A stretch of 64,000 nucleotides of DNA, taken from the UHGV virus genome UHGV-1358930. The stretch is one strand, 5' to 3'. The notes below the pieces were generated by a model. The model saw nothing but the letters and a program-made list of their open reading frames with translations. It was not told the DNA's origin and searched no databases. This document shows positions 2,854 through 44,564 of the stretch, piece by piece (within the stretch, counting starts at the first letter, position 1; every line of letters begins with the position of its first letter). This DNA is from a virus. A program made the translations under genes and the position numbers.

Positions 2854-4722
2854 TTGGCTATCGCTAAAGTTCCAGATGATTTATTTAAAATATGTCAAAC
2901 TTGTGGTGAAAAATTCCACCCTAACACATACAGACAACGTAATTGTGGTAAAACAAGAACTAAAACATGTCCAATATGTGGCAAGGATTTTACATATACA
3001 TGTACTCCGGAAGGATCAAAGAAGAAAACATGTTCCAGAAAGTGTGCAGATCAATTCGCTGAACAAGTTAGAGAATCTAAGTCATCCGCAGTTAAAAAAG
3101 CTTGTGAGTACTGCGGCAAACTATTTACACCTAAAACAAAGTTTGATAGATACTGCTCAGGTCCTCACTACAAGAAGTGTGTAGTTTGCGGAAAAGAATT
3201 TGAGTTTGACATACTATACTACAAAGGAATAAAGACATGTTCTAAAGAATGCAGATATAAGCTTGCAACAGATAATAGAGATATTCCTACTATGGTGCAA
3301 AATCTAGAAAGCACAATGCTTATGAAATACGGCGTCAAGCATGCTATGGATATTCCTGGTGTAGTAGATAAAATAAAAGAAACAAACAGAGCTAGATATA
3401 GAAGTGATTGGTATACGCAGACCGATGAATACAAGCAATCTGTAGAACAGACTTCACTGGCTAACTACGGAGTTAAGCACTTTCTTTCTAGTGAAGAAGT
3501 AAAGTCAAAACGAAGAGATACGTGTAAAGAAAAATATGGAGTGGATAATGTATCAAAATCTCCTGAGATTCAAGAACGAATAAAAGAAACATATGCTAAG
3601 AAATTCGGTTTAGAGAACGTGAGCCAGACACGAATCGGCAATATATCTGAATGGGTACAATTCAAAGCAGACCCTAAAAAATATCTAGAGACTACATTTG
3701 ATAACGCTCCTACGATACAAGATCTTTGTTTGTATTTTGGCTGCTGTAGTGCGTCATTGTACAACGCGATCAAAGGTGTAGATGTCAGTAATCTAATTAA
3801 GCATACTAGTTCAAACGTAGAATCCGAAATAATTGATTGTTTGAAATTTATTTCGCCTGAATCTAACGTGATAAGAAATTGTAGATCGATCATATCTCCG
3901 TATGAAATTGATATTTATCTACCAGAATTGAAGTTAGGAATTGAATGTGATCCAACAGTAACTCATAATTCATCTGTTTCAGATCCCTGGGGTCAGCCTC
4001 CAAAAGATAGTAAGTATCATCAAATGAAAACAGATATGTGTGAATCACAAGGTGTCAGACTTATTCATCTATTTGGATACGAATGGAACCATAAACGTGC
4101 TATCATGGAATCTATTTTACGGAATGTATTGGGTAAAAATGATAGGCGAATTTATGCAAGAAAGTGTGAGTTGCGTGAAGTTTCTTATACAGACAGTAAA
4201 GTGTTTCTGATTGCTAATCATAGACAAGGCTTTGCAAATTCGTCTGTTAGACTTGGACTATACTATCAGAATGAATTAGTTTCACTTATGACATTTGGCA
4301 AGATTCGACGAACTATTGGAGCAAACAAAGATGTTGACGGTTGGGAACTTGTCAGATTCTGTAATGCGTTGAATACCTCAGTTGTAGGTGGAGCTTCTAA
4401 GTTATTCAAACATTTTGTAGATACATACCATCCTGAAGTTATACTATCATTCTCAGACAGAGCGCATACAACCGGTAACTTGTACCAAACTTTAGGATTT
4501 ACAGAGAAGAGCAGATCTGCTCCTGGATATGTTTGGGTAGATGAATTAACTGATATCGCATACAACCGTGTCAATGCACAAAAGCATAACTTAAAGAAAT
4601 TTTTGAACGATGATAACATCGATTTAACAAAAACTGAAGCTCAGATAATGGAGGAACACGGATTCGTGAGAGTATACGACAGCGGTGTAATAACATGGCA
4701 GTGGAACAAACCGATGAAGTAG
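2854..4722 (+). CDS. Multi-zinc-ribbon protein with four tandem FCS/TRASH-like fingers at the N-terminus, KYGV-type repeats in the middle and a C-terminal domain of unknown function.
   Basis: Repeated C-x2-C-G-K-x-F...(T/F)CS-x2-C units occur in residues 14-130. Repeated KYGVKH/KYGVDN units occur in residues ~150-250. The start codon is TTG, preceded by GGAG. Confidence 0.4.
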   Translation: MAIAKVPDDLFKICQTCGEKFHPNTYRQRNCGKTRTKTCPICGKDFTYTCTPEGSKKKTCSRKCADQFAEQVRESKSSAVKKACEYCGKLFTPKTKFDRYCSGPHYKKCVVCGKEFEFDILYYKGIKTCSKECRYKLATDNRDIPTMVQNLESTMLMKYGVKHAMDIPGVVDKIKETNRARYRSDWYTQTDEYKQSVEQTSLANYGVKHFLSSEEVKSKRRDTCKEKYGVDNVSKSPEIQERIKETYAKKFGLENVSQTRIGNISEWVQFKADPKKYLETTFDNAPTIQDLCLYFGCCSASLYNAIKGVDVSNLIKHTSSNVESEIIDCLKFISPESNVIRNCRSIISPYEIDIYLPELKLGIECDPTVTHNSSVSDPWGQPPKDSKYHQMKTDMCESQGVRLIHLFGYEWNHKRAIMESILRNVLGKNDRRIYARKCELREVSYTDSKVFLIANHRQGFANSSVRLGLYYQNELVSLMTFGKIRRTIGANKDVDGWELVRFCNALNTSVVGGASKLFKHFVDTYHPEVILSFSDRAHTTGNLYQTLGFTEKSRSAPGYVWVDELTDIAYNRVNAQKHNLKKFLNDDNIDLTKTEAQIMEEHGFVRVYDSGVITWQWNKPMK

Positions 4723-5335: not shown

Positions 5336-5710
5336 ATGGCAGCTAGAGGAAACAACAAGTATTACTACTACATCAAAGGTGTAAACAAAAAATTTACTAC
5401 ATCTCGAGAAGTTTGTAGGTATCTAAAAATTTACCTAAATGTAGCTATATACGAAACAGAGCTATTGAAGTTGCTGAATCATCCAGATCAAGTATTCAAA
5501 TTCGATTTTGATAAGTCCTGGGTTATCGACAACGTATACAGAGAGGAAGTGCCGCATACATATTGTAATAGATGTGGAAAGCGCATATATCAAGGCTCAA
5601 ACGTCTTCCACAGATCTGGAGCAGAATTCAAAGACAAACTATTCTGCTCTATTAGATGTTTTGCACTAGAATACACAGATTTAGTCGAATCTACCTATCA
5701 TCCTCAGTAA
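5336..5710 (+). CDS. Small FCS/TRASH-type zinc-ribbon protein, paralog 2.
   Basis: The C-terminus carries CNRCGKRIY...FCSIRC. The N-terminus is a YYYY-rich domain similar to paralog 3. Confidence 0.5.
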   Translation: MAARGNNKYYYYIKGVNKKFTTSREVCRYLKIYLNVAIYETELLKLLNHPDQVFKFDFDKSWVIDNVYREEVPHTYCNRCGKRIYQGSNVFHRSGAEFKDKLFCSIRCFALEYTDLVESTYHPQ

Positions 5711-12020: not shown

Positions 12021-12463
12021 GTATTCGAGACAATCAGAAATTCGATGTAATATGTAAAGAATGTGGGAACAACGTATTTGAGGCTGTAAAACTAATTTCA
12101 AGTTGTGCTGATTATATATCTAAATCTACCTTTCATAAGGTTGATGAATCAGATGCAATAGAATGGATAATGAATAGAAAATATCCGAAATTTGAAGATC
12201 TTTTATCTTATCCGCAGTCTAAACAACATCTGATAGATACGTATATATCTATATATACCGAATTAGTTGACGACGCTCAAGTTACAGCAAGTGTAAAACT
12301 CTCTATTTATTCTAGCTACAGAAGCCGTAAATTGAAGTTTATTTATGCTTTTGTGTCAGATGACTATAGAAGAAGTAGAGTGAGAATACTAACCCGAATG
12401 ATTTGGTACGCATTATATCCAGTACCTAAAAGAACACAAGGAGGCATAGATGATGGAACCTGA
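12017..12463 (+). CDS. Hypothetical protein.
   Basis: The ORF overlaps the upstream stop by 4 nt, consistent with translational coupling. Confidence 0.35.
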   Translation: MSIRDNQKFDVICKECGNNVFEAVKLISSCADYISKSTFHKVDESDAIEWIMNRKYPKFEDLLSYPQSKQHLIDTYISIYTELVDDAQVTASVKLSIYSSYRSRKLKFIYAFVSDDYRRSRVRILTRMIWYALYPVPKRTQGGIDDGT

Positions 12464-14957: not shown

Positions 14958-17672
14958 ATGAACAGAATACAGATAAATCAGAATGGAAACTACTACGAGA
15001 TAAAATTTAAATATGATCCAACTTTAGTTGCTATGATAAAGCAGATTCCTGGAAAGGAATGGAATCCGGGTGAAAAGCTTTGGAGAATTCATAAAGATAA
15101 GTTAGGAATGCTGCTGAATATGCTCAAGGGTTCTAAGTACGCAGATGCTTATGAATTACAGAGTAATGAGCAGATAGGTGAAAATGCAGAAATTGAACCT
15201 ACTACGACTATCCCGAATGTTGATTTAACTGGAATCAAGTTATTTGTCGAAGATGGCAGTAAGCTGTATCCACATCAGTTAGATTTTATGAAATATGCGA
15301 TTGATCGTCAGCGCAAAGGATACAGAAGCGGGTTTCTTTGCGCAGACGATCCCGGTTGCATCGACGGAGATGCAACAATTCGTATCAAAGAATCTGGAAA
15401 GCCGTGGACGCGTGAGACCAAATTGTCTAACGTGTACAAGTTGTTCTCAGATGGGCATGTATTCAAAGTCAAATGTATGGTTAATGACAGATTTCAATAT
15501 ATGCCAATCAAATATGTATTAGATAGAGGAAATAGATCTGTTGTTAAGGTTACGTTTGAATCCGGATACATTATCTGTACACCTGATCATGAAATATATA
15601 CAGAAAATGGATGGGTTCCTGCAGAAAGCTTGTCTACTGGAGATACAATATTTACAAATGGTGATCCTGAAAGATGTATAAACTGTGGAAGTACAGAAAA
15701 CATCATTCAGTCATCTGACGCAACCTACAAAGGATACTGCAGAAGATGCATGTATAAATTTAGAAAGTGCGGCGTGCTTGACGATGATGTAGTTGTAAAG
15801 ACCGTTGATGAAGATGGATATGTTAGATTGAAGGGTAGACCTACAAGACTATGGCCTTTGCATGACAAATCAAATGGAATGGGAATATATGAGCATCATC
15901 AGGTTTGGTATGAACACACTGGGCATATTATAGACACTAAAACTGAAGCGATTCATCACATCAATCATATCAAGACTGATAATCGATTTGAGAATTTGAA
16001 GTTATTGTCTATTTCCGAGCATGCTAAACTCCATGCTGACATGTCTACAAATCATTTGCCACAGTTTCAAGATCGAGACTTTTATTACTGCCATGGAGTA
16101 AAGACTTGGTGTGTTCCTCATTCTGAAGCCGTCTTATCTGTGGAGCCTTTTGGAACAAAACATGTATATGACATAGTAATAGATAGCGAAGATATCCATA
16201 ATTTTATTGCAAACAATGTAGTTGTACATAACTGCGGTAAGACTTTAGAGAGTATTAACTATGCAATGTACAATAAGCTATATAACAGATACAAACATTG
16301 TTTAGTCATCTGTAACGTCAATACTTCGAAGTATAACTGGCAAGATGATATCAGGAAGCATACCAATGGAAAAATGAGTGGATATATTTTAGGATCTAGA
16401 AAACGGAAACATCCGAAGCCTGGGCAAGCTATTTATATCGTAGGAAGTAGCCAAAACAAATTAGATGATCTATTGTGCGGACATATGTATGGAGATGATA
16501 CTGAACCCGAATTACCCTATTTTATCATCTTAAATGTAGAAGCTATCAGAATGAAAGTAGGAAAACGATACCCTATCGCAGATAAAATCATCGACATGAT
16601 AAATGATGGCGAACTTAATATGATTATCATTGATGAGGTACATAAAAATATGTCACCCACATCCTTACAAGGCAAGCAGATACTTAGGATAAAAGACAAA
16701 ACTCATAGTAGATGTACATGGATATCGTTAACAGGTACTCCTATCGTCAATAAACCTACAGATGTTTTCTTACCTATGCGATTGATAGATGCACACAATT
16801 TTACTAGTTACTACAAATGGTGTCAGTATTTCTGCGTATATGGAGGATACGGTGGGCATGAAGTAATTGCGTATCGAAATATTCCTAGGCTTAAATTTAT
16901 GTTACAGCAAAATATGATTCGTCGGAGAAAAGAAGATGTTTTGAATCTACCTGATAAGATTCATATGGATGTATACGTAGAAAACACTAAATACCAGTCC
17001 AGACTTGCTGAAGAAGTTACAATGGACTTGATTGCACACGCAGAAGAAATTGCAAATGATTTGAACCCTATGGTCAGATTCTTACGACTTCGTCAGGTTA
17101 ATGGATCTCCAGAATTAGTTGATCATGATCTTCGAGTAGATAACACTTATTTGAAATACAACGCAAAGTTAGTCAAGTTGTTAGAATTACTTGAGGAGAT
17201 TCACGAAAGAGGAGAGAAGACAGTTATCTTCTCCAACTGGGTCGAGCCACTTCGTACACTATTCAAATTCTTATCTTCAAAATATAAAGTATGCTGCTTT
17301 ACAGGTACAATGTCTGAATCAGAAAGACAAAAGCATAAGCGTGTGTTTATGAACAATCCTGAATACACTGTTATGATAGGCACTATTGGTGCACTTGGAA
17401 CTACTCATACATTAACTGCCGCAAACAATATCATATTTTATGACGAGCCCTGGACATACGCAGATAAATTACAAGCAGAAGATAGATGCCATCGAATTTC
17501 GGCAAAAAAGTCCGTTAATGTATATACACTTATTTCTAAAGATACAATTGACGAACGAGTACATGATATAGTGTATAGCAAGAAAGACACATCGGATTAT
17601 TTAGTTGACAACAAGCTTGACTTCAAAAACAATCCAAATCTAGTTGCTACACTACTAGGTAAAGACATCTGA
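14958..17672 (+). CDS. SNF2-family (SF2) helicase precursor containing an intein.
   Basis: The split motif I (LYPHQ...CADDPG|CGKT), the DEVH box (IIIDEVH) and C-terminal helicase motifs (AEDRCHRI) are all present. Residues 134-425 interrupt the P-loop. Confidence 0.65.
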   Translation: MNRIQINQNGNYYEIKFKYDPTLVAMIKQIPGKEWNPGEKLWRIHKDKLGMLLNMLKGSKYADAYELQSNEQIGENAEIEPTTTIPNVDLTGIKLFVEDGSKLYPHQLDFMKYAIDRQRKGYRSGFLCADDPGCIDGDATIRIKESGKPWTRETKLSNVYKLFSDGHVFKVKCMVNDRFQYMPIKYVLDRGNRSVVKVTFESGYIICTPDHEIYTENGWVPAESLSTGDTIFTNGDPERCINCGSTENIIQSSDATYKGYCRRCMYKFRKCGVLDDDVVVKTVDEDGYVRLKGRPTRLWPLHDKSNGMGIYEHHQVWYEHTGHIIDTKTEAIHHINHIKTDNRFENLKLLSISEHAKLHADMSTNHLPQFQDRDFYYCHGVKTWCVPHSEAVLSVEPFGTKHVYDIVIDSEDIHNFIANNVVVHNCGKTLESINYAMYNKLYNRYKHCLVICNVNTSKYNWQDDIRKHTNGKMSGYILGSRKRKHPKPGQAIYIVGSSQNKLDDLLCGHMYGDDTEPELPYFIILNVEAIRMKVGKRYPIADKIIDMINDGELNMIIIDEVHKNMSPTSLQGKQILRIKDKTHSRCTWISLTGTPIVNKPTDVFLPMRLIDAHNFTSYYKWCQYFCVYGGYGGHEVIAYRNIPRLKFMLQQNMIRRRKEDVLNLPDKIHMDVYVENTKYQSRLAEEVTMDLIAHAEEIANDLNPMVRFLRLRQVNGSPELVDHDLRVDNTYLKYNAKLVKLLELLEEIHERGEKTVIFSNWVEPLRTLFKFLSSKYKVCCFTGTMSESERQKHKRVFMNNPEYTVMIGTIGALGTTHTLTAANNIIFYDEPWTYADKLQAEDRCHRISAKKSVNVYTLISKDTIDERVHDIVYSKKDTSDYLVDNKLDFKNNPNLVATLLGKDI
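15357..16232 (+). other. Intein of 292 aa containing an HNH_3-type homing endonuclease and a zinc finger, inserted in the helicase Walker A loop.
   Basis: The insert starts at Cys (G|CIDGDATI) and contains block B (TPDHEIYT). Its HNH motif is HHINHIKTDNRFENLKLLSISEHAKLH. It ends VVVHN followed by the extein Cys (CGKT). Confidence 0.6.
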
Positions 17673-33868: not shown

Positions 33869-33942
33869 TGGAGATTGGAGTAATGACAGCACATAGGTCT
33901 TTGACACCTACGGAGTAAGTTCAAATCTTGCATCTCCAGCCA
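33869..33942 (+). tRNA. tRNA-like element with a Gln-type anticodon loop (UUG) and a degenerate D-arm.
   Basis: It has a 7 bp acceptor (tggagat/atctcca) ending in g-CCA, a good T-arm (gtaag-TTCAAAT-cttgc) and an anticodon stem-loop taggt-CTTTGAC-accta. The D-stem is weak. Confidence 0.35.
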
Positions 33943-34446
33943 ACTGTCAATACTTAATTGACTGATGTCAGAGTAATCAGCTAACCTGACAAAGAATGAA
34001 AATGGTCGCCCTCCACCCGGAGGGCGTGGATGGAAATTACGAGATAAGTCCTCGTTATTTACCTTAGGATAGTGGCTAGTTGATAACGCGTAGCGTGACA
34101 ATCTAAGCGGTAAGCTGATGAACTAAATTATTTACAATCGTTAATTAAGTATGTAGCAGCTAGTAAGCTATTACATAGGAGCTCACAATCCTGCCGAAAT
34201 ATCATCTAGAATATTTCCGCGCAAATTGGCTGAAAAGAGTGAGTGGCAAGGAATATGCCAGGAATGATTCCAAAGTTGATAAGCAACTATAACCGGGTGC
34301 AAAACCAATCCCGGTATGATTAGAATCATACTTCTTAATAAGAATTCCGTATATCCTTGATTGAAGTATACGAAATTCGTTGATCCTAAAACGATAGGCG
34401 TTAACACATGTTTTATAGGTGACACCTCGGAAAGACGAGGATATAC

Positions 34447-34522
34447 GCTGGTGTAGCTCAGTTGGTAGAGCAGCTGATTTGTAATCAGCAGGTCAGGGGT
34501 TCGAGTCCGTTCACCAGCTCCA
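34447..34522 (+). tRNA. tRNA-Thr (anticodon UGU).
   Basis: Hand-folded cloverleaf with a 7 bp acceptor, a D-arm gctc/gagc and the anticodon loop tTTGTAa. One T-stem mismatch is present and the gene encodes its CCA. Confidence 0.55.
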
Positions 34523-35275
34523 TATCGGCCGGTTTCGGGTCGTTAGATAAACACAGTGATGTGTATAAAGCATGGTCGATGATTTCTGAACCATGCGACT
34601 GAAGAAGTTCTTCAGTGCAACGGAAAACCAATATTCACTAATCCAAACCTACGGTTGAGGGCAACTGCTAATGCTATGGCTTGGAAGGAGTCATGAAAAA
34701 GGCTCTATATTAACTCGGAAACGAGTGGATGGGAAATTGCTTCGAGGTGCGAATCCTGTTAAGTTCAGTGCTTCGTTGATTTTGAAAGCTCCCTTAAATC
34801 GAAAGATAGGAGCGCTTTCAGTAAAGCCTGTCGATAACAAGACGGCAGAACGGCGACGATTGGGTCGTGCTCAAAAGGTACGAATGGTCAAACGTACACC
34901 TCGTCGTTCATTGGGATCAATACACACTTTAGCTTTCATTAGCACCAGTGGGGTAAACTGTTATATCAAGCAAAAGTGTGTGCGACTTTAGAGAGACAAA
35001 CGACTTATCGTTCTGAAAAATGAACGCGCGTAAAGCTCGCAAGGCAATACGTGAGACAGTACGAGTAGGTGCAACCGTAGGAGACCGCAATCTCCGCACT
35101 CCGCAAGAGGCGATGTGCTAAAAGGAAATCTATAGTGCTTCAGAGTAAGATTTTGCTGGCTTTTACAAAACCAGTGTCGTTGATGCCTACAGCTTAATCG
35201 GCTGTGTGGTCACTCGCTTCCAACGGCGAGAGATGGCATCGTGGCGGGTCAAGATCTCAGCCCGTCGTTCAATAT

Positions 35276-35348
35276 AGTCCAATAGCTTATCACGGTAAAG
35301 CGCGTTTGTAAAACGACGAGTGGCTCGGTTCGAACCCGGCTTGGACAT
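35276..35348 (+). tRNA. tRNA-like pseudogene in which the anticodon arm is replaced by a 5 bp stem with a 3 nt loop.
   Basis: A 6/7 bp acceptor, a D-stem gctt/aagc and a T-arm tcgg-TTCGAAC-ccgg are present. The stretch cgttt-GTA-aaacg forms a tight hairpin in place of an anticodon loop. Confidence 0.3.
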
Positions 35349-35629
35349 CCTATTAGACCCTTGCACGCCTCTCAACGATGCGTACCATGCGAGGGTCGAA
35401 ATTAAATAGTTTTCTTGCCGCATTTGGTACGAAGTATCAAAATATCCGCTGCCTGCGGTAATAGGTGATCTGAATATAGATCAAATTCAGATCAACGGCG
35501 TAGCATTTAACGGGCTTTAGCTACACTACACGGTAAGAGTTGAGAAAGCTGGTTGATGTATCGTGCAAACCTGCGGGTCCACGATCCACAGACGGTTCGC
35601 GATGACTGCTGTAAACGGAATCGCGTTTT

Positions 35630-35721
35630 GGGAATGTACTCAAGTGGTTGAAGAGACCAGTCCTGAAAACTGGGAGGTCGTTCATAGCGGCGCGAGCGTT
35701 CGAATCGCTCCATTCCCGCCA
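35630..35721 (+). tRNA. tRNA-Ser (anticodon UGA), class II with a long variable arm.
   Basis: The acceptor gggaatg/cattccc ends in g-CCA. The D-arm has a 3 bp stem. The anticodon arm is ccagt-CCTGAAA-actgg, the variable arm is 20 nt and the T-arm is gagcg-TTCGAAT-cgctc. Confidence 0.6.
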
Positions 35722-36276
35722 TCCCCGCTCGACGCAACGCGCCTGAGAATGAAACCGATGCAACTTTGGGAGCACGTCACACGGGCGGAAAAGCCGTGCG
35801 TTGCTAAACCTGCTCCAACGTAATGGAGGAAGTCGGAACGGCTAATCCGTCAAGAGCCGAAGAACTGGATCCTAAGCTCATATTCGATAACAACAGAAGC
35901 GTGTAGGTGGCAGCTCGGAAAGACGAGCAAATATAGGTCAGTACAGTGTAATTGGTATCACCCCGGACTGTAAATCCAGCTTGGCCTACTATAGAGATAG
36001 CGCTAAGACCAGCTATCACGGCGTTGAATCAGTGATCAGGTACAAGAAACGCTTAATCTCGAAGCGAAACAGAGTAGCTAAAAGAACTGTACGTTGCATA
36101 GTAGGCAACCAACCGAAATTGGCCGAACTGGCGTGTCGTGTAGCCATGCGACTTTAAATAACAACGGTGGCACCATTACATACAGATGCGCTGCGAGCAA
36201 AGTATGAGAAAGATTATCTTTCTTTTGTCGGTGGGCAGGTTTGAAGTTATCCTGTTGCAGATAAAACTTCAAACAC

Positions 36277-36350
36277 GCCGGTATAGTGTAGTGGTAACAC
36301 CCAATCCTTCCAAGATTGTATTGCGGATTCGAGTTCCGTTACCGGCTCCA
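36277..36350 (+). tRNA. tRNA-Gly (anticodon UCC), copy 1.
   Basis: The cloverleaf has anticodon loop cTTCCaa, discriminator U and an encoded CCA. Confidence 0.55.
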
Positions 36351-36460
36351 GCGCGAGAACGTCACTGACTAAGCGTAGCACAGTGCATGGATAGGAGGGA
36401 AGCTTCATGAGAAACGACGCGCACGCCTTCTAAGTCTTGAAAGGGGGGGGGACTTAGAAA

Positions 36461-36760
36461 ATGAGCAGAAGCTATAAGAAAACGCCGTGGTGCGGAGATA
36501 AGAAAGGCAAATGGAAAAAGCGCAGAGCTTCAAAGGTCGTGCGCGGATATCTCAGGCGCCATATCGAAGATCTGTTCCAAGATGCGCAATACAAGAAAAT
36601 CTACTGTTCACGGTACATATGCGACTACGGGTTCTTATATCCATGGGAAGAGCATTGGACGTATGTGCAGGAAGAGAATTCACATGTGCGTGCGAATGAG
36701 CCAAAACGTTCGAAAGAAGATGAGTACCGCCAGTGGTATCAAGAGTACAAAGCTAAATAA
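36461..36760 (+). CDS. Hypothetical basic protein inside the GC-rich island.
   Basis: A 99 aa K/R-rich ORF. A poly-G9 tract in a hairpin loop sits directly upstream of the start. Confidence 0.3.
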   Translation: MSRSYKKTPWCGDKKGKWKKRRASKVVRGYLRRHIEDLFQDAQYKKIYCSRYICDYGFLYPWEEHWTYVQEENSHVRANEPKRSKEDEYRQWYQEYKAK

Positions 36761-36799
36761 CAATCGGTTATGCGCTCTCCGATAAAAGAGCGCACACGA

Positions 36800-36874
36800 T
36801 GGGCTATGGTGAAAAGGCAACACATCAGACTTTGACTCTGACATTTGTTGGTTCGAGTCCAACTAGCCCAGCCA
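36800..36874 (+). tRNA. tRNA-Gln (anticodon UUG).
   Basis: U1-A72 and G73 match the usual Gln identity features. The anticodon arm is tcaga-CTTTGAC-tctga, the T-arm is gttgg-TTCGAGT-ccaac and the CCA is encoded. Confidence 0.55.
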
Positions 36875-36949
36875 AGTAAAAAGAAGACGTTTTATCTCTC
36901 TTTATCTTTCTGTTTGTGGCATCAGTACAAACAAAATGCCACACAACAT

Positions 36950-37026
36950 GGGAATGTAGCTCAGTAGGTTAGAGCGCATGACTATAGGTCATGAGGTCGA
37001 AGGTTCAAGCCCTTCTGTTCCCTCCA
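36950..37026 (+). tRNA. tRNA with an atypical anticodon arm: loop CTATAGG, apparent anticodon AUA, or alternatively a 6 bp stem with a 5 nt loop.
   Basis: The acceptor, D-arm (gctc/gagc), T-arm (gaagg-TTCAAGC-ccttc) and CCA are all good. The anticodon loop is non-canonical. Confidence 0.4.
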
Positions 37027-37435
37027 AAGCCTATGTCAGTATAGGTCTTGAAATGATAAATAGACCAATACATTATCTTTCTAAAGATAATGTATCTGAT
37101 GAAAAGAGATCATCAACTCTCGGCGAAATATAACTGTTGTGACGAATGTGTCGCTTGACACAAAGAAGTAGCAGGTTCGTCGCTGCGCTTAATCTACTGA
37201 ACTGCAATGTTGATGTAAGCAGTGATAGAGGTTCCCAAACCCATTCAGGGAGATTAAGAAAAAGTTTGCTTATTTAGTAGAAAGAGGGTTGGAGGGGCAC
37301 AGCAAGTAGAATAAATGCAATAGGGCAACAAATTTGAAAGCTAATAAAGGATGTGCTAAGGAGCAGAAGTAACTACCTCTGTCTACTGTGTATTTCTACT
37401 AAATGAGTTTAACTTTTTATTAAGGAGCTTATAGT

Positions 37436-37648
37436 ATGAAAACATATACTTTTATTTGTTATGATAAGTATCCAAAAACAGTTAAAAAGTTCCACACTTT
37501 TAGAAAGCGATTTTCTTCGTTATCAGATATTGCTAAATTCTTAAAATCTTCAAATAAGCTCTATTTGCATGAGCCACTGAAACAGCTATCTAAAAACGAA
37601 TTAGCAATTCTGTCAAAGAAGCTCCGATCGTTAAATAACATCACATGA
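37436..37648 (+). CDS. Hypothetical small basic protein.
   Basis: An AAGGAG ribosome-binding site precedes a 70 aa ORF. Confidence 0.3.
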   Translation: MKTYTFICYDKYPKTVKKFHTFRKRFSSLSDIAKFLKSSNKLYLHEPLKQLSKNELAILSKKLRSLNNIT

Positions 37649-37771
37649 AAAATCAAAATATTTATAAATAAGCTAGAAGGTTTTAATTAAATTTTATTTT
37701 TGACAATTATACTAAAATACTAAATTATCCGTATAATTGAACCTAATATAAATGTAGATAGGAGGTGATAC

Positions 37772-39028
37772 ATGATGAAAACATGGAAGCAAAATCTAAA
37801 ACATCTTACCGTCGATCAATACAATCTGTTAAGAGAATTATGTAGCTTGTCTAGAGCAGTATATAATGAAAGTTTGTATAATATTCGGCAGCATTATTTT
37901 GAAGAAGGTTCTTACTTGAGATATGAAGCAAACTACTATCTTGTAAAGAATTCTGATAATTACAAAAGATTAGGTGCAAATGTTGCTCAGCAATCTATGA
38001 AAGGAGCTGACGCATCCTTCAAATCCTTCTTCGGGTTACAGAAGCTCGCTAAATCCGGCAAGTATCAGGGCTGGAAAATACGAATGCCCAAATATTTGAA
38101 GAAAGATTCGTTTTTCAAAATAGTATTTAGTCAAGCGCAGATATCAGATGACAAATTTCGTGTTCCGGTTTCTTTTGATATGCGAAAAGATTACAAAGAA
38201 CCAATGTTCATAAAAATTCCTCCGCATATTATCGGCAAGAAAATAAGGCAGATTCATATTGTTCCTAAGTACAACGGTAGATACTTTGAAGTTAGATACA
38301 TGTTTGACGATATTGATGTAGAAAAGCCTGAAATCGATGCTACAAGAGCAATGGGAATAGACTTAGGTGTCAATAACTTAGCTACTTGTGTAACCGATAC
38401 AGGTGAGTCTTTCATAATTGATGGTAAGAAATTAAAATCAATAAATCAATGGTACAACAAAGAGTTGGCCAGACTGTCAAGTATTAAAGATAAGCAAAGT
38501 ATCAAAGGTTACACAAAACGCCAATACAACCTGACAACTAAGAGAAACAACAGAGTTAACAACTATATTTATTGTGCAGCTAAGAAAATAGTTAACTACT
38601 GTGTCAATAACAAAATTGGTAATATTGTTGTAGGGTATAATGATGGTTTTCAATCGAGATCCAACTTAGGAAAAGTAAATAACCAAAACTTCGTTATGAT
38701 TCCGTTAGGACGACTGAAGAGCAGACTTGAGTATCTTTGCAATCAACATGGAATCAATTTTGTACTTCAAGAAGAAAGTTACACTTCAAAAGCATCGTTC
38801 TTTGACGATGATAAAATGCCAAAATGGAATCCGCAGAATCCAGAAGAAGCAAAATTTTCGGGAAAACGCGTATACAGAGGATTATACATCACATCAAACA
38901 AAACCAAAATAAACGCAGATGTCAACGCAGCACTAAACATACTAAGAAAAAGTAACTTGACAGACCTAACCGTCTTACAAGCTAGAGGCGCAGTCAGCTC
39001 GCCTTCAAGATGCTATATAGCATCTTGA
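37772..39028 (+). CDS. tnpB: IS605/IS200-family OrfB (TnpB) RNA-guided nuclease homolog with no adjacent TnpA.
   Basis: RuvC-like motifs GIDLGVNNLAT, QEESYTSKASF and INADVNAALNIL are present. The 418 aa size is typical, and a zinc-ribbon region sits near the C-terminus. Confidence 0.65.
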   Translation: MMKTWKQNLKHLTVDQYNLLRELCSLSRAVYNESLYNIRQHYFEEGSYLRYEANYYLVKNSDNYKRLGANVAQQSMKGADASFKSFFGLQKLAKSGKYQGWKIRMPKYLKKDSFFKIVFSQAQISDDKFRVPVSFDMRKDYKEPMFIKIPPHIIGKKIRQIHIVPKYNGRYFEVRYMFDDIDVEKPEIDATRAMGIDLGVNNLATCVTDTGESFIIDGKKLKSINQWYNKELARLSSIKDKQSIKGYTKRQYNLTTKRNNRVNNYIYCAAKKIVNYCVNNKIGNIVVGYNDGFQSRSNLGKVNNQNFVMIPLGRLKSRLEYLCNQHGINFVLQEESYTSKASFFDDDKMPKWNPQNPEEAKFSGKRVYRGLYITSNKTKINADVNAALNILRKSNLTDLTVLQARGAVSSPSRCYIAS

Positions 39029-39153
39029 TAAAGATTTTTTTAATGAATTTAATTGATTTATTTAAAATCTGCTGATGTAGCGCAGCTGTTAGAGCAACCG
39101 ACTTTAAGCAATGAGTCGTAGGTTGAAGTCTAGCAACCAGCTAGATTTGATAT

Positions 39154-39227
39154 GCGGATATAGTGTAACGGTAACATCCGACTCTTCCAAAGTCGTGTTG
39201 CGGGTTCGAGTCCCGTTATCCGCTCCA
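39154..39227 (+). tRNA. tRNA-Gly (anticodon UCC), copy 2.
   Basis: The cloverleaf has the same anticodon loop cTTCCaa, discriminator U and CCA, but a different acceptor from copy 1. Confidence 0.55.
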
Positions 39228-39363
39228 AGAGGGAGTATGCACCCCGCTACCCATCTAGTATGTCGACTATCTGATGGCGCGAAATTTAACTGAAAAGAGC
39301 ATATATGCAAGCTTGTCGCATATGAGTACAAGTGTCGTAAAGTCAATACGATGTCTAACTATT

Positions 39364-39391
39364 TTGACAAAGGCAGAGAAGCTGCTATAAT
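39364..39391 (+). promoter_or_regulatory. Sigma-A-like promoter upstream of tRNA-Met.
   Basis: TTGACA and TATAAT are separated by 16 nt, and a conserved hairpin follows. Confidence 0.5.
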
Positions 39392-39421
39392 CGGGTGCAA
39401 AAACCATTCCCGATACAATAA

Positions 39422-39498
39422 GGGTCTTTAGCTCAGTTGGTCAGAGCATCCGGCTCATAACCGGACGGTCCAGGGTTCAAACCCCTGAAGACCCACCA
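39422..39498 (+). tRNA. tRNA-Met or Ile2 (anticodon CAU), elongator type.
   Basis: G1-C72 is paired and the discriminator is A. The anticodon arm is tccgg-CTCATAA-ccgga and the CCA is encoded. Confidence 0.6.
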
Positions 39499-39712
39499 CA
39501 ATTGGTACAACACGACTGTAACGACTCTCGCGGTTTAAAGTTGTATCCCACTTCTTGATTGAGGTGTGAAGTGTCAAGAGAGCTTCCGACGAGTCTTATG
39601 GGCACCACCTAGCGGTGAAAAGATAAGACAATCGTCATTAGATCTAAGTTGTCCGGCAGTGTTAATGTTATTGAATCATGGTGAAATTGTGATCACATCT
39701 GCCGGATACATA

Positions 39713-39783
39713 TCCTCCCGTAGTGTAGTGGTAGCACTAGCGTCCGTCAGGGCGAAGGATCCGTTCGAATCGGAAGGGAGGTT
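39713..39783 (+). tRNA. tRNA-like pseudogene in which the anticodon arm is replaced by a 5 bp stem with a 4 nt loop.
   Basis: The D-arm (gtgt-agtggta-gcac) is nearly identical to the Gly tRNAs and the T-arm is tccg-TTCGAAT-cgga. The segment cgtcc-gtca-gggcg forms a tetraloop hairpin with no anticodon loop, and no CCA follows. Confidence 0.35.
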
Positions 39784-39997
39784 GTCTGGCACGGACAAAG
39801 TGCAGAACCTATCAAGAGGAATTCAGTGCCTGCCTCGCTTCGGATAGCAAAAGAAGGCGTTTGGTAGTAATCGACAAACTACTCGCGGTTACAGAGAGGG
39901 AGAGGCGTTACAGGTAAACCTCTTAGGTGCTATGATATCAGGCACTTAGCAAAGCACAGCTTGCAGTTAGGACTAATCCGACCAGATATCAAAATAT

Positions 39998-40071
39998 GCA
40001 GCTATAGTGTAATGGTAACACTCAACTCTTCCAAAGTTGTATTGCCGGTTCAAATCCGGTTAGCTGCTCCA
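39998..40071 (+). tRNA. tRNA-Gly (anticodon UCC), copy 3.
   Basis: The cloverleaf has anticodon loop cTTCCaa, discriminator U and CCA. Confidence 0.55.
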
Positions 40072-40090
40072 CAGAAAGTCTACAGAAAGG

Positions 40091-40417
40091 GTGATAAATA
40101 TGGCTATTTATAAATGCCCGGTTTGTGAAGGAAGGGGATTTGTTCCTTTCGGATTCTATACAAGTCAACCACATGATGGAAGCTCAATAACTGGTTCTGC
40201 TTCAACTGAAATTTGTAGAAGCTGTGATGGTAGAGGCGTAATATTTGATGAATGCCTTAGAACAGCTTCAAACAATGAGCAAAAGATCTGTAGCAACTGC
40301 GAAATGAATGATGGAATGGTATATATGTCTTATCCTCCTAAGTACAGATGCACTGTATCCGGTTGTTTCAATGAAGGAACACATCTATGCGATCTAGATG
40401 ACGTGATGGATAAGTGA
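40091..40417 (+). CDS. Cys-rich protein with four CxxC pairs, probably a zinc ribbon.
   Basis: Zinc-ligand pairs CPVCEGRG, CRSCDGRG, CSNCE and CTVSGC are present. A GGGTGA ribosome-binding site precedes the start. Confidence 0.4.
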   Translation: MINMAIYKCPVCEGRGFVPFGFYTSQPHDGSSITGSASTEICRSCDGRGVIFDECLRTASNNEQKICSNCEMNDGMVYMSYPPKYRCTVSGCFNEGTHLCDLDDVMDK

Positions 40418-40478
40418 AACAACTATCCAATATAATATAGAGATCGGTAGGACGCTGACGTGTGCTGACCGAATCGTT

Positions 40479-40518
40479 CCGTCTGGGTGCGTCAACACCT
40501 GGACGGTTCTTTTTTTTG
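40479..40518. terminator. Rho-independent terminator.
   Basis: A GC-rich imperfect stem ccgtctggg...cctggacgg is followed by a T9 run. Confidence 0.65.
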
Positions 40519-43173: not shown

Positions 43174-43663
43174 AGTATGGAAAGACATTCCAGGTTATGT
43201 GAGCTATCAAGCTTCAAGCTTAGGTAGAATTCGTCAATCGTTGCCAAACAGCAACTACAAATACCTAAAGCCCAGTATGACGACAGATGGATATTTAACA
43301 GTACACGTAGTAGGATGTCCGCTTAGATATCCAACAGTTGCTAAACTAGTTTGCTTAGCATTTCATGGACACTCTTCGCTTGATATTATTCATCCCGTTG
43401 TAGATCACATAAACAATAATTCAACAGATAATCGACCGGAAAATTTAAGATGGATATCACAAAGAGAGAACGTCAATCAAGCAATTAAGTACAGAATAGG
43501 TAAATGCCAAATACGATGCAAAGAAATAGGCGAAATATTTGATTCTATTTCTGCAGCGAGTAAGCAGCTTAGCATTCGTTACTATTCGATATATAACAAT
43601 CTGAGGAATAATATTCCAACGCATGGATTATCATTTGAAAGGATAGAAAAGGCAGATGGCTGA
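43154..43663 (+). CDS. HNH homing endonuclease with an N-terminal NUMOD4-like region, an HNH_3 core and a C-terminal DNA-binding domain.
   Basis: Motifs WKDIPGY..YQASSLGRIR, VDHINNNSTDNRPENLRW and a C-terminal V.C.E.G..F.S...A.K are present. Confidence 0.6.
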   Translation: MITEEIEVWKDIPGYVSYQASSLGRIRQSLPNSNYKYLKPSMTTDGYLTVHVVGCPLRYPTVAKLVCLAFHGHSSLDIIHPVVDHINNNSTDNRPENLRWISQRENVNQAIKYRIGKCQIRCKEIGEIFDSISAASKQLSIRYYSIYNNLRNNIPTHGLSFERIEKADG

Positions 43664-44153
43664 AGAAATATGGAAAGACATCCCGAATTATACACCGTAT
43701 CAAGCTTCTTCATTAGGTAACATCCGAATGAAACTGACTGACGGTTCATTTAAGCTACTCAAGCCGTTCTTAAACATGGATGGTTACTATCAAGTAGCTG
43801 TCAAGAACTGTCCTACAAAACTACCTAACCTTCACAGGCTTGTAGCTTTTGCGTTTCATGGTGTACCAGAAACTAGGATGGTAGTAGATCATTTGAATAA
43901 CATACATACTGATAATAGACCTGAAAATCTAGAATGGGTTACGCAGAAAGAAAATATGCGAAGGGCGAAGGTGATGGGACTGTATGCTAAGAAAACAAAA
44001 ATCAAATGCGTAGAAGACAACATCATCTATGAATCTATCGCAGACTGCGCGAAGAAAACAGGTATTCGACCTGCAAGTTTGTGGAGTACTACAAGAGACG
44101 GTACAGCAATTCATGGTAAACATTATATAAGAATTGAGCAAGAAAATATCTAA
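43656..44153 (+). CDS. HNH homing endonuclease, a tandem paralog of 43154.
   Basis: Motifs WKDIPNY..YQASSLGNIR and VDHLNNIHTDNRPENLEW are present. It overlaps the upstream gene by 8 nt. Confidence 0.6.
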   Translation: MAEEIWKDIPNYTPYQASSLGNIRMKLTDGSFKLLKPFLNMDGYYQVAVKNCPTKLPNLHRLVAFAFHGVPETRMVVDHLNNIHTDNRPENLEWVTQKENMRRAKVMGLYAKKTKIKCVEDNIIYESIADCAKKTGIRPASLWSTTRDGTAIHGKHYIRIEQENI

Positions 44154-44177
44154 ATATTAACAAATTATTAACGATAG

Positions 44178-44206
44178 TTGAATTCACCCTCAAGATCGCT
44201 TATAAT
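44178..44206 (+). promoter_or_regulatory. Consensus sigma-A-type promoter preceded by TTAAC(A/G)A motifs.
   Basis: TTGAAT and TATAAT are separated by 17 nt. Confidence 0.55.
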
Positions 44207-44276
44207 ATAAGTATCGACATATAGTTACACATATCAGAAATCAGAAAATAACTGATACAAAAATTGGAGGTACAGT

Positions 44277-44564
44277 ATGGAGAAGAACATTGTAACTTCT
44301 ATAACAGATCAGATTCGAGTACTGCAGGAACATGAAGTCATTGCTTCAAAAGCAGGATTGCACTACGCAGTTATGTTTGTGCAGCTAGATGATAAATCAG
44401 AAGTATTCTGGCACGATATTTGGTCACAAGATAAGAATATACTCATGTGGATGCTAGACCAGCTTGAAGCAAGCTACAACGATATGGAAGATGTCAGATA
44501 TGAATCATATGTTGGTACACATATTCGTAACATCGGTTCGAGTGGATTAGATTTCAGTAATTGA
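44277..44564 (+). CDS. Hypothetical protein.
   Basis: A GGAGG ribosome-binding site is present. Confidence 0.35.
   Translation: MEKNIVTSITDQIRVLQEHEVIASKAGLHYAVMFVQLDDKSEVFWHDIWSQDKNILMWMLDQLEASYNDMEDVRYESYVGTHIRNIGSSGLDFSN

Follow-up and report, generated by a model that had tools for sequence, protein, structure and literature searches.

A TnpB element in the tRNA island of a phage and its possible RNA-guided homing between phages

The element and its insertion sites

The window analysed here, a 64-kb stretch of phage DNA (viral genome UHGV-1358930; all coordinates are positions of the whole stretch), contains a tnpB gene in its tRNA island. The gene lies between a conserved phage open reading frame (ORF) of 70 aa (37436-37648) and downstream tRNAs, with no Y1 TnpA adjacent, as a preliminary description of this DNA had stated. 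That description had also recognised a solitary TnpB of the IS200/IS605 kind, which is borne out. The tnpB gene is part of an element with precise ends (Table 1), the mobility of which is evident from its several genomic contexts and from a second polymorphic site. It is an element of a known kind, a non-autonomous IS200/IS605-type TnpB element with a predicted omega RNA, and represents a new phage-resident lineage. Related contigs that were fetched for comparison carry L numbers (L001-L006, L129-L132 and so on).

Table 1. Features of the TnpB element, its flanks and related sites in the window. A slash within a sequence marks an insertion point.
Feature	Position	Strand	Basis or remark
Whole non-autonomous IS200/IS605-type TnpB element, 1,435 bp	37642-39076	+	Occupied versus empty alleles
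Interrupted phage ORF, 70 aa (69 aa in empty alleles)	37436-37648	+	Homologue clusters; last 7 nt are element DNA
Predicted target/transposon-adjacent motif AACAT	37637-37641	+	Flank immediately 5' of the left end; empty sites L129-L132
Left end	37642-37771	+	First 7 nt, CACATGA, give a new stop codon to the interrupted ORF
Promoter-like TTGACA-17-AATTAT	37700-37728	+	Consensus match only
Conserved inverted repeat in the left end	37705-37712 / 37731-37738	+	
tnpB, 418 aa	37772-39028	+	Pfam, PHROG, alignments, AlphaFold2 model, Foldseek
Predicted omega RNA scaffold (modelled part)	38950-39076	+	Covariation, fold, covariance model R1
Predicted guide segment, GTAGCGCAGCTGTTAG	39077-39092	+	Flank immediately 3' of the right end
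tRNA-like stretch	39071-39142	+	6 nt of element terminus and a degenerate tRNA-like relic in the flank
tRNA-Gly	39154-39227		ARAGORN; just downstream of the element
Solo 66-nt right-end relic of a sister (L006/L130-type) TnpB element, without tnpB	34319-34384	+	Model R1
Empty target site AACATACAT/ACTGATAATAG in an HNH/NUMOD4 endonuclease gene	43896-43927	+	Break at 43907/43908

Contigs with an uninterrupted site were found through homologues of the upstream ORF. A search for empty sites in related phages had been proposed in the preliminary description, and four such contigs (L129-L132) were identified. These come from closely related phages in which the left flank is 93% identical over 1.1 kb and the ORF and downstream tRNAs are present, with the element absent. 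The uninterrupted site reads ...TTAAATAACAT/GTAGCGCAGCTGTTAGAGC..., in the wider context ...CGATCGTTAAATAACAT/GTAGCGCAGCTGTTAGAGCT..., and at the insertion point itself the empty alleles have ...AATAACAT/GTAGCGC, that is AATAACAT/GTAGCGCAG. The occupied allele of the window reads ...AATAACAT/CACATGAAAAATC...TCTGCTGAT/GTAGCGCAGCTGTTAGAGCA, with the element between the slashes. Comparison of the occupied and empty alleles therefore places the element at 37642-39076, without a target-site duplication and 3' of AACAT.

The insertion splits the last sense codon (AT/G) of a conserved 69-aa ORF, 77 nt upstream of tRNA-Gly. The ORF ends ...LNNM-stop in the empty allele and ...LNNIT-stop in the occupied allele, the new stop codon (TGA, 37646-37648) being supplied by the element. 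Among 53 clusters of homologues of this ORF most end ...LRSLNNM and none ends ...NNIT. The insertion in the window is therefore rare and probably recent.

Protein relatives of this TnpB number in the thousands, the best 120 of which are 69-97% identical to it and are on contigs of up to 183 kb. Copies with 84-97% identity are found in unrelated neighbourhoods: between DUF7487 genes (L001, L002), between an S1-domain gene and the serine hydroxymethyltransferase (SHMT) gene (L003/L004), after a clamp-loader gene (L005, L044/L045), beside a NUMOD4/HNH gene (L038-L041), and between small ORFs (L042/L043). The same element ends are present in at least 8 unrelated contexts other than that of the window, and at least 9 different sites are occupied by near-identical copies in related gut-phage contigs. 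On the right, similarity between the copies ends everywhere at one base, ...T(T/C)TGCTGAT, corresponding to 39076 in the window; on the left it ends a few bases before a conserved RAAAWTYAAWAT block. The Ser-Gly spacer of L003 was considered as an empty site for the window insertion and rejected, as it is not homologous. The window counterpart of the L003 insertion site shares only its left flank, because the window has no SHMT gene.

A second site is polymorphic between the same phages. In L130, a sister TnpB element is present after AATATACAT at exactly the HNH/NUMOD4 site that is empty in the window, and it truncates the endonuclease gene. This site, occupied in L130 and empty in the window, confirms the target-motif rule.

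The five bases 5' of the left end are AACAT in the window, AATAT in L001 and L005, TATAT in L003 and L044, and TACAT in L002 and before the second element of L130. In 8 insertions the left end follows AYAT, and the transposon-adjacent motif (TAM) is predicted from these flanks to be (A/T)AYAT, which is A/T-rich. Seamless insertion by a short motif without duplication is a hallmark of the HUH-Y1 'peel and paste' mechanism of IS608 and ISDra2.

Between sublineages the left end starts with 7 nt that are entirely different, the variants being CACATGA, GGCATAG, AGTGTAG, GGTACGA and CCGATGG (window, L001-L005, L042, L044), and the approximately 12 nt after them are conserved. An RYRT-like motif can be recognised in several of these 7-mers, and they may be captured former target sites. 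Pairing or covariation of the left-end start (ACATCACATGAAA) with a 12/13 internal repeat (38886-38898) was also considered and rejected, since the internal copy is a conserved coding stretch; in other sublineages it shows no change that matches the left-end start. The element has no terminal inverted repeat, with only a weak subterminal complementarity of 18 nt (83%). The right-end hairpin is 6 nt from the end, and the only conserved stem of the left end is 64-97 nt inside and is unrelated in sequence.

The TnpB protein and the predicted omega RNA

A strong Shine-Dalgarno sequence (AGGAGGTGA) is present upstream of the tnpB ORF. The 418-aa product had been identified as OrfB/TnpB in the preliminary description, and the profile search proposed there gives OrfB_IS605 with an E-value of 9.8e-24, together with Cas12f1-like_TNB (E 3.1e-8), both above the curated cut-offs of Pfam. 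The product also matches PHROG 506 'transposase'.

The three catalytic motifs quoted in that description are found at D197, E334/E335 and D383. In two alignments (A3 and A8), D197 (RuvC-I, GIDLGVNN) and D383 (RuvC-III, NADVN; N381-A-D383-V-N385) are invariant, and the canonical RuvC-II position is an invariant glycine, G288 (IVVGYND). Of the canonical D-E-D triad, the two aspartates are therefore present and the position of the glutamate is G288. An invariant glutamate, E335 (QEESYTS), follows 47 residues after G288. Naming QEESYTS as RuvC-II thus picked out the right residue, but this is not the standard motif, for which the canonical position is G288.

TnpB clades termed 'RuvC-II-rearranged' (RIIr), with an alternative glutamate, and 'derived' forms with NADxN have been described, including virus-specific rearranged branches (Altae-Tran et al. 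2023, PMC10691335). By that description, the window protein shares with them a glycine (G288) in place of the glutamate, E335 after the next beta-strand, and NADVN. It fits the rearranged type on the grounds of its sequence, with glutamate replaced by glycine at the canonical position, the alternative E335, and NADxN, and it is predicted to be an active RuvC nuclease of this type that uses D197, E335 and D383. The C4 zinc finger is reported to be conserved in the major clades other than RIIIr-4 and to have been lost in some large branches (PMC10691335). In contrast to those major clades, the whole clade of the window protein lacks it: residues 336-382 have no Cys or His pairs, and no zinc finger is present in 16 aligned clade members.

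In an AlphaFold2 (AF2) model of the protein, with an overall predicted local distance difference test (pLDDT) score of 77.6, one strand (282-289) ends at G288 and another (329-334) precedes E335. Foldseek matches the model to AsCas12f (E 1.7e-16), ISDra2 TnpB (8h1j, E 2.5e-14, TM-scores 0.58/0.66), ISFba1 TnpB and Fanzor2. No match to PDB sequences was obtained with the single protein using phmmer, and a clade profile search of PDB matches Cas12f chains. Sequence identity to solved TnpBs is approximately 16%.

The ratio of nonsynonymous to synonymous substitution rates (dN/dS) is 0.07-0.13 between tnpB copies at different sites. The gene is under strong purifying selection, and the TnpB protein is therefore under selection while the element moves. 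Two related kinds of system do not fit. A TldR, a nuclease-dead TnpB-like repressor, does not agree with the invariance of D197, E335 and D383 and the varying genomic contexts. An IStron, a TnpB element fused to a group I intron with the ribozyme on the 5' side, does not agree with a left end of only 130 nt and with the lack of any intron family in an Rfam scan at E<=1.

An RNA over the 3' end of tnpB and the right end of the element had been anticipated, and a structured, covarying RNA is found there. The last 125 nt or so form four stem-loops, among them a hairpin at the stop codon (39005-39028) and a long AT-rich terminal hairpin (39032-39070), followed by an invariant GCTGAT. The fold has a z-score of -3.7, and with RNAalifold 15 of 45 pairs are compensatory. 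In a comparison of eight copies, 94.5% of cells are paired. Changes on both sides affect 16 pairs; column shuffling gives 5.6+-1.7 (0/500), and sliding the partners gives 1-3. With a covariance model made from the eight copies (R1), this RNA is recovered at the tnpB 3' end of every relative searched, with scores of 25-46 bits for the bacterial relatives. The Rfam scan over the element and the tRNA-like relic of its right flank identified no omega RNA, tRNA or intron family. This conserved RNA is predicted from its position and structure to be the expected omega RNA, the true 5' end of which may be further upstream than 38950.

The guide of a TnpB was reportedly found by Karvelis in 2021 to be the flank directly 3' of the right end. 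In the window, this flank begins with GTAGCGCAGCTGTTAG, the predicted guide, which has a perfect match in the empty alleles of L129-L132, directly after AACAT; the match extends over 19/20 nt (17 contiguous in L130). The segment occurs once in the window and its nearest other matches have 3 mismatches; one of these is in tRNA-Thr and follows GCTGGT rather than AYAT.

Homing between phages and other explanations

The window and L129-L132 are collinear and differ by the presence or absence of the element at an identical site, and the empty allele retains the predicted target beside AACAT. The probable account as a whole is that 37642-39076, a non-autonomous IS200/IS605-type element with only tnpB and its predicted omega RNA, could spread by RNA-guided homing between phages. 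TnpB would bind the omega RNA, and the flank (GTAGCGCAGCTGTTAG...) would provide its 3' guide. When a phage with the element and a phage without it infect one cell, the complex would cut the empty allele, AACAT-GTAGCGCAG..., and recombinational repair from the occupied genome would copy the element in, a non-restorative homing that amounts to gene drive. The occupied allele would be protected, as it has GCTGAT in place of the TAM. To reach new A-Y-A-T sites the element would depend on a Y1 (HUH) TnpA in trans, presumably from a host IS200/IS605 element. For phage-to-phage homing taken alone, the chances are judged to be about even.

The features of the element agree with those of tnpB-only IS200/IS605 elements (IS1341-type, with ISDra2 of Deinococcus and IS608 of Helicobacter as models), with which it shares a single tnpB and asymmetric ends, seamless insertion 3' of a 4-5 nt motif without duplication, and a structured RNA over the tnpB 3' end and right end with a guide from the flank. 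With ISDra2 TnpB it also shares the predicted fold. It differs from ISDra2 and IS608 in its motif, (A/T)AYAT rather than TTGAT or TTAC, in end stem-loops that are AT-rich and mutually dissimilar, in having no TnpA partner that could be found, and in its replicon, a virulent-looking phage.

TnpB elements are thought to persist by RNA-guided homing, for which the natural evidence is mainly bacterial and the experimental evidence comes from plasmids. Restorative homing by TnpB was reportedly described by Meers et al. in 2023. The window element has in common with TnpB homing and gene drive that the insertion site specifies the guide, that element-free copies of the replicon carry the TAM and target, and that the replicon is multi-copy and recombination-proficient. 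A TnpA-independent IS605 gene drive has been described in multicopy plasmids, with no mention of phages (Mears et al. 2025, 10.1101/2025.02.20.638934), and homing into co-infecting phages is treated in a 2026 review as a theoretical case only (PMC13565253). In contrast to the plasmid gene drive, the replicon here is a phage and the evidence is population-genomic only.

Phage homing endonuclease genes, free-standing or borne by introns, such as T4 SegB in a tRNA region and the HNH/NUMOD4 genes of the window, also show presence or absence at identical sites among related phages, a variable tRNA island location, and a predicted target that is the empty allele. Recognition by the window element, unlike theirs, would be through an RNA guide and a 4-5 nt motif rather than by a protein, and the element has transposon ends and many unrelated sites.

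Several observations weigh against homing by such an element as it is set out above. The window site is occupied only in its own clone (5 contigs), so that no spread by drive is visible at this site. The L042 insertion follows GTGT and not AYAT, and the solo relic, preceded by GTAT, is the other exception. No hairpins that are alike were found at the left and right ends, unlike in IS608 and ISDra2. The pLDDT of the AF2 model is below 50 at exactly 291-308 and 335-361, and the active-site position of E335 is therefore putative. The ends of the omega RNA and the length of the guide are set by analogy with known systems. Further, no source of TnpA was found and the nearest bacterial TnpB relatives are no more than 55% identical, because of which the step of mobilisation in trans is unsupported.

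The search for TnpA was made with phmmer (E<=1), using two Y1 TnpAs and one serine TnpA from annotated phage records as queries. None was identified in the window or in approximately 45 phage loci, and the same search found a Y1 TnpA beside 2/80 bacterial relatives. In 185,579 species-representative genomes the best TnpB relatives, at up to 55% identity, are in Bacillota, Synergistota, Fusobacteria and cyanobacteria. All copies of 59-97% identity that were seen are on phage-like contigs or in IMG/VR viral genomes. In the nearest relatives, with 51-55% identity, the hairpins of the two ends are GC-rich and match each other, where the phage sublineage has AT-rich stem-loops that differ between the ends. 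When the bacterial copies are compared with one another, their conserved stretch starts TTTAT/TTAT, presumably their target motif, and their right ends read ...GTTCAC. Judged by these ends, the bacterial relatives behave as ordinary IS200/IS605 elements.

It is therefore necessary to ask how the phage copies come to new sites. The conservative answer is that a host TnpA acting in trans moves them. A phage-confined TnpB lineage without any TnpA, which would enter new A-Y-A-T sites without Y1, by an unrecognised phage enzyme or a TnpB-dependent route, and would then spread by gene drive between co-infecting genomes, is unlikely as a full account. That the phage lineage reaches new sites by such a Y1-free route is held to be quite improbable, although it would explain why neither a Y1 nor a serine TnpA is found in the window or the phage loci, and it agrees with the absence of bacterial relatives above 55% identity and with AT-rich end hairpins unlike those of the bacteria. 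Set against this, seamless insertion 3' of a short motif without duplication is the signature of HUH-Y1 'peel and paste', bacterial members of the clade sometimes adjoin a Y1 TnpA, and the TnpA search covered part of each phage genome, with three phmmer queries of limited reach and no host genome. There is a small but appreciable chance that tnpB is kept for the benefit of the phage, as an RNA-guided weapon in interference competition with element-free relatives or as a domesticated regulator, and is not part of a selfish element. The strong purifying selection, the occurrence of the lineage only on phage-sized contigs, the lack of TnpA, and a guide that matches sister phages would all suit this, and intron endonucleases mediate phage competition (Birkholz 2024, cited in PMC13565253). 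However, at least 9 insertion sites with presence/absence polymorphism are not what is expected of a fixed locus, and the intact catalytic residues do not suggest a dead repressor resembling TldR. Killing and homing are in any case not exclusive and are inseparable in silico. It is scarcely credible that the element is an inert, decaying remnant without current activity. There is no transposase, the site is occupied in one clone only, and a truncated sister relic is present at 34319-34384, but the tnpB frame is intact with low dN/dS across sites, the catalytic residues are invariant, and the RNA structure has been kept through compensatory changes.

The location in the tRNA island, just before tRNA-Gly, raises the question of whether a tRNA gene was the target. 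The preliminary description saw a fragment resembling a tRNA 5' half at the right end, correctly placed it before tRNA-Gly, and took it to indicate insertion into or beside a tRNA gene. There is a weak likeness between 39071-39104 and the 5' half of the phage tRNA-Thr (34447-34480), with 79% identity over 34 nt (BLAST E 0.08). The whole of 39071-39142 can be aligned with this tRNA, and the flank resembles a decayed tRNA-Thr, having a D-arm-like start, a T-loop-like GGTTGAAGTC and a 3' AACCAGCT. It is nevertheless very unlikely that the element inserted into a tRNA gene or at its edge and that the 5' half is what is left of the target. The first 6 nt of the fragment belong to the element, since GCTGAT (39071-39076) is its invariant terminus in every genomic context, and the resemblance of 'GCTGATGTAGCGCAGC...' to an acceptor start comes from the joining of this terminus to the flank. 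No tRNA is called at the right end by ARAGORN, or by the Rfam tRNA model even at E<=10 on 311 nt, and ARAGORN finds none at this position in the empty-allele contigs either; the fold of the stretch is unremarkable (z = -1.8). Before GTAGCGCAG the empty allele reads AACAT (AACATG across the junction), so the relic had no acceptor 5' strand before the insertion. The tRNA-like relic predates the insertion, the target was the last codon of the 69-aa ORF (AATAACAT/GTAGCGCAG), and a strict tRNA-insertion reading is refuted by the empty sites. The tRNA-like appearance of the right junction seems incidental and mostly an artefact of the junction.

With homing between phages as the favoured explanation, the locus offers a nucleotide-exact and testable natural case. 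The material for such a test includes an intact element with exact ends, sister phages with an untouched target by the predicted TAM, a second site at which the occupied and empty alleles are swapped between the same phages, and a decayed relic in the same island. A compact (418 aa), zinc-finger-less TnpB with a rearranged RuvC-II and a predicted AYAT TAM may also be of interest for genome editing. In addition, the comparison corrects a tempting misreading, in which an apparent junction artefact is taken for half of a tRNA.

Related elements and the tRNA island

The solo relic at 34319-34384 scores 30.9 bits with model R1 and is 97% identical to L130 12135-12200. Where the right junction of the relic reads GTTGAT/CCTAAAACG, L129 has ACGTAT/CCTAAAACG. 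To the left of the relic, approximately 435 nt including a tRNA-Ser are missing relative to L129, and a deletion next to the element is suggested by this. The tRNA island was therefore struck on more than one occasion.

In the second element of L130 the 3' end is composite (12060-12210): the loop of a window-type stop-codon hairpin contains an L006-type right end (...CGAAATTCGTTGAT), with AGCATCTTGA after it. Tandem right ends or recombination between two types of omega RNA may account for this. The second TnpB of L130 has no match among database proteins. Two diverged TnpB copies (L008 and L018), 63% and 59% identical to the window protein, are present on one 200-kb IMG/VR contig.

The genes of the window, which include a head maturation protease, homing endonucleases, helicases, an NAD-dependent ligase and tail-fibre-like proteins, identify it as phage DNA, and a 108-kb human-metagenome scaffold contains the identical sequence. 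Among cultured-phage records, megablast found no relatives of 36500-40500 and the best tblastn match has 38% identity. Exact searches of IMG/VR with both flanks gave no match, and a search with a degenerate right-end pattern returned mostly chance AT-rich matches.

Nine tRNAs are identified in the window by ARAGORN, with the island extending from 33869 to 40071. A full-length match to GOLLD RNA (RF02032; 34848-35263, + strand; 92 bits, E 1.4e-23, under the gathering score of 150) is inside the island, upstream of tRNA-Ser. Approximately 100 nt after it there is a match to abiF RNA (RF03085; 35359-35395, + strand) of 38.3 bits, the gathering score being 37. Some tRNAs have odd anticodon loops, at 36950-37026 in the window, 5514-5590 and 7011-7082 in L129, 5514-5591 in L131, and 9844-9918 in L003. 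ARAGORN calls these Tyr(ATA), Asn(ATT) or '???' with 2- or 4-nt anticodons, and in the Rfam alignment the anticodon loop of the window copy is CUAUAGG. They could be A34 tRNAs, suppressors or decaying copies.

A hairpin motif, ATAA(C/T)CGGGTGCAAAA(A)CCA(A/T)TCCCG(G/A)TA, is present in two copies. One (34288-34316) abuts the solo relic and the other (39384-39413) is just before tRNA-Met (39422); the motif may serve the tRNA island as a promoter or a processing signal. The window also has several genes or domains of HNH/NUMOD4-type homing endonucleases (2854-4722, 14958-17672 and approximately 43300-44400), one of them apparently inside a helicase ORF. The phage bears many selfish nucleases besides TnpB.

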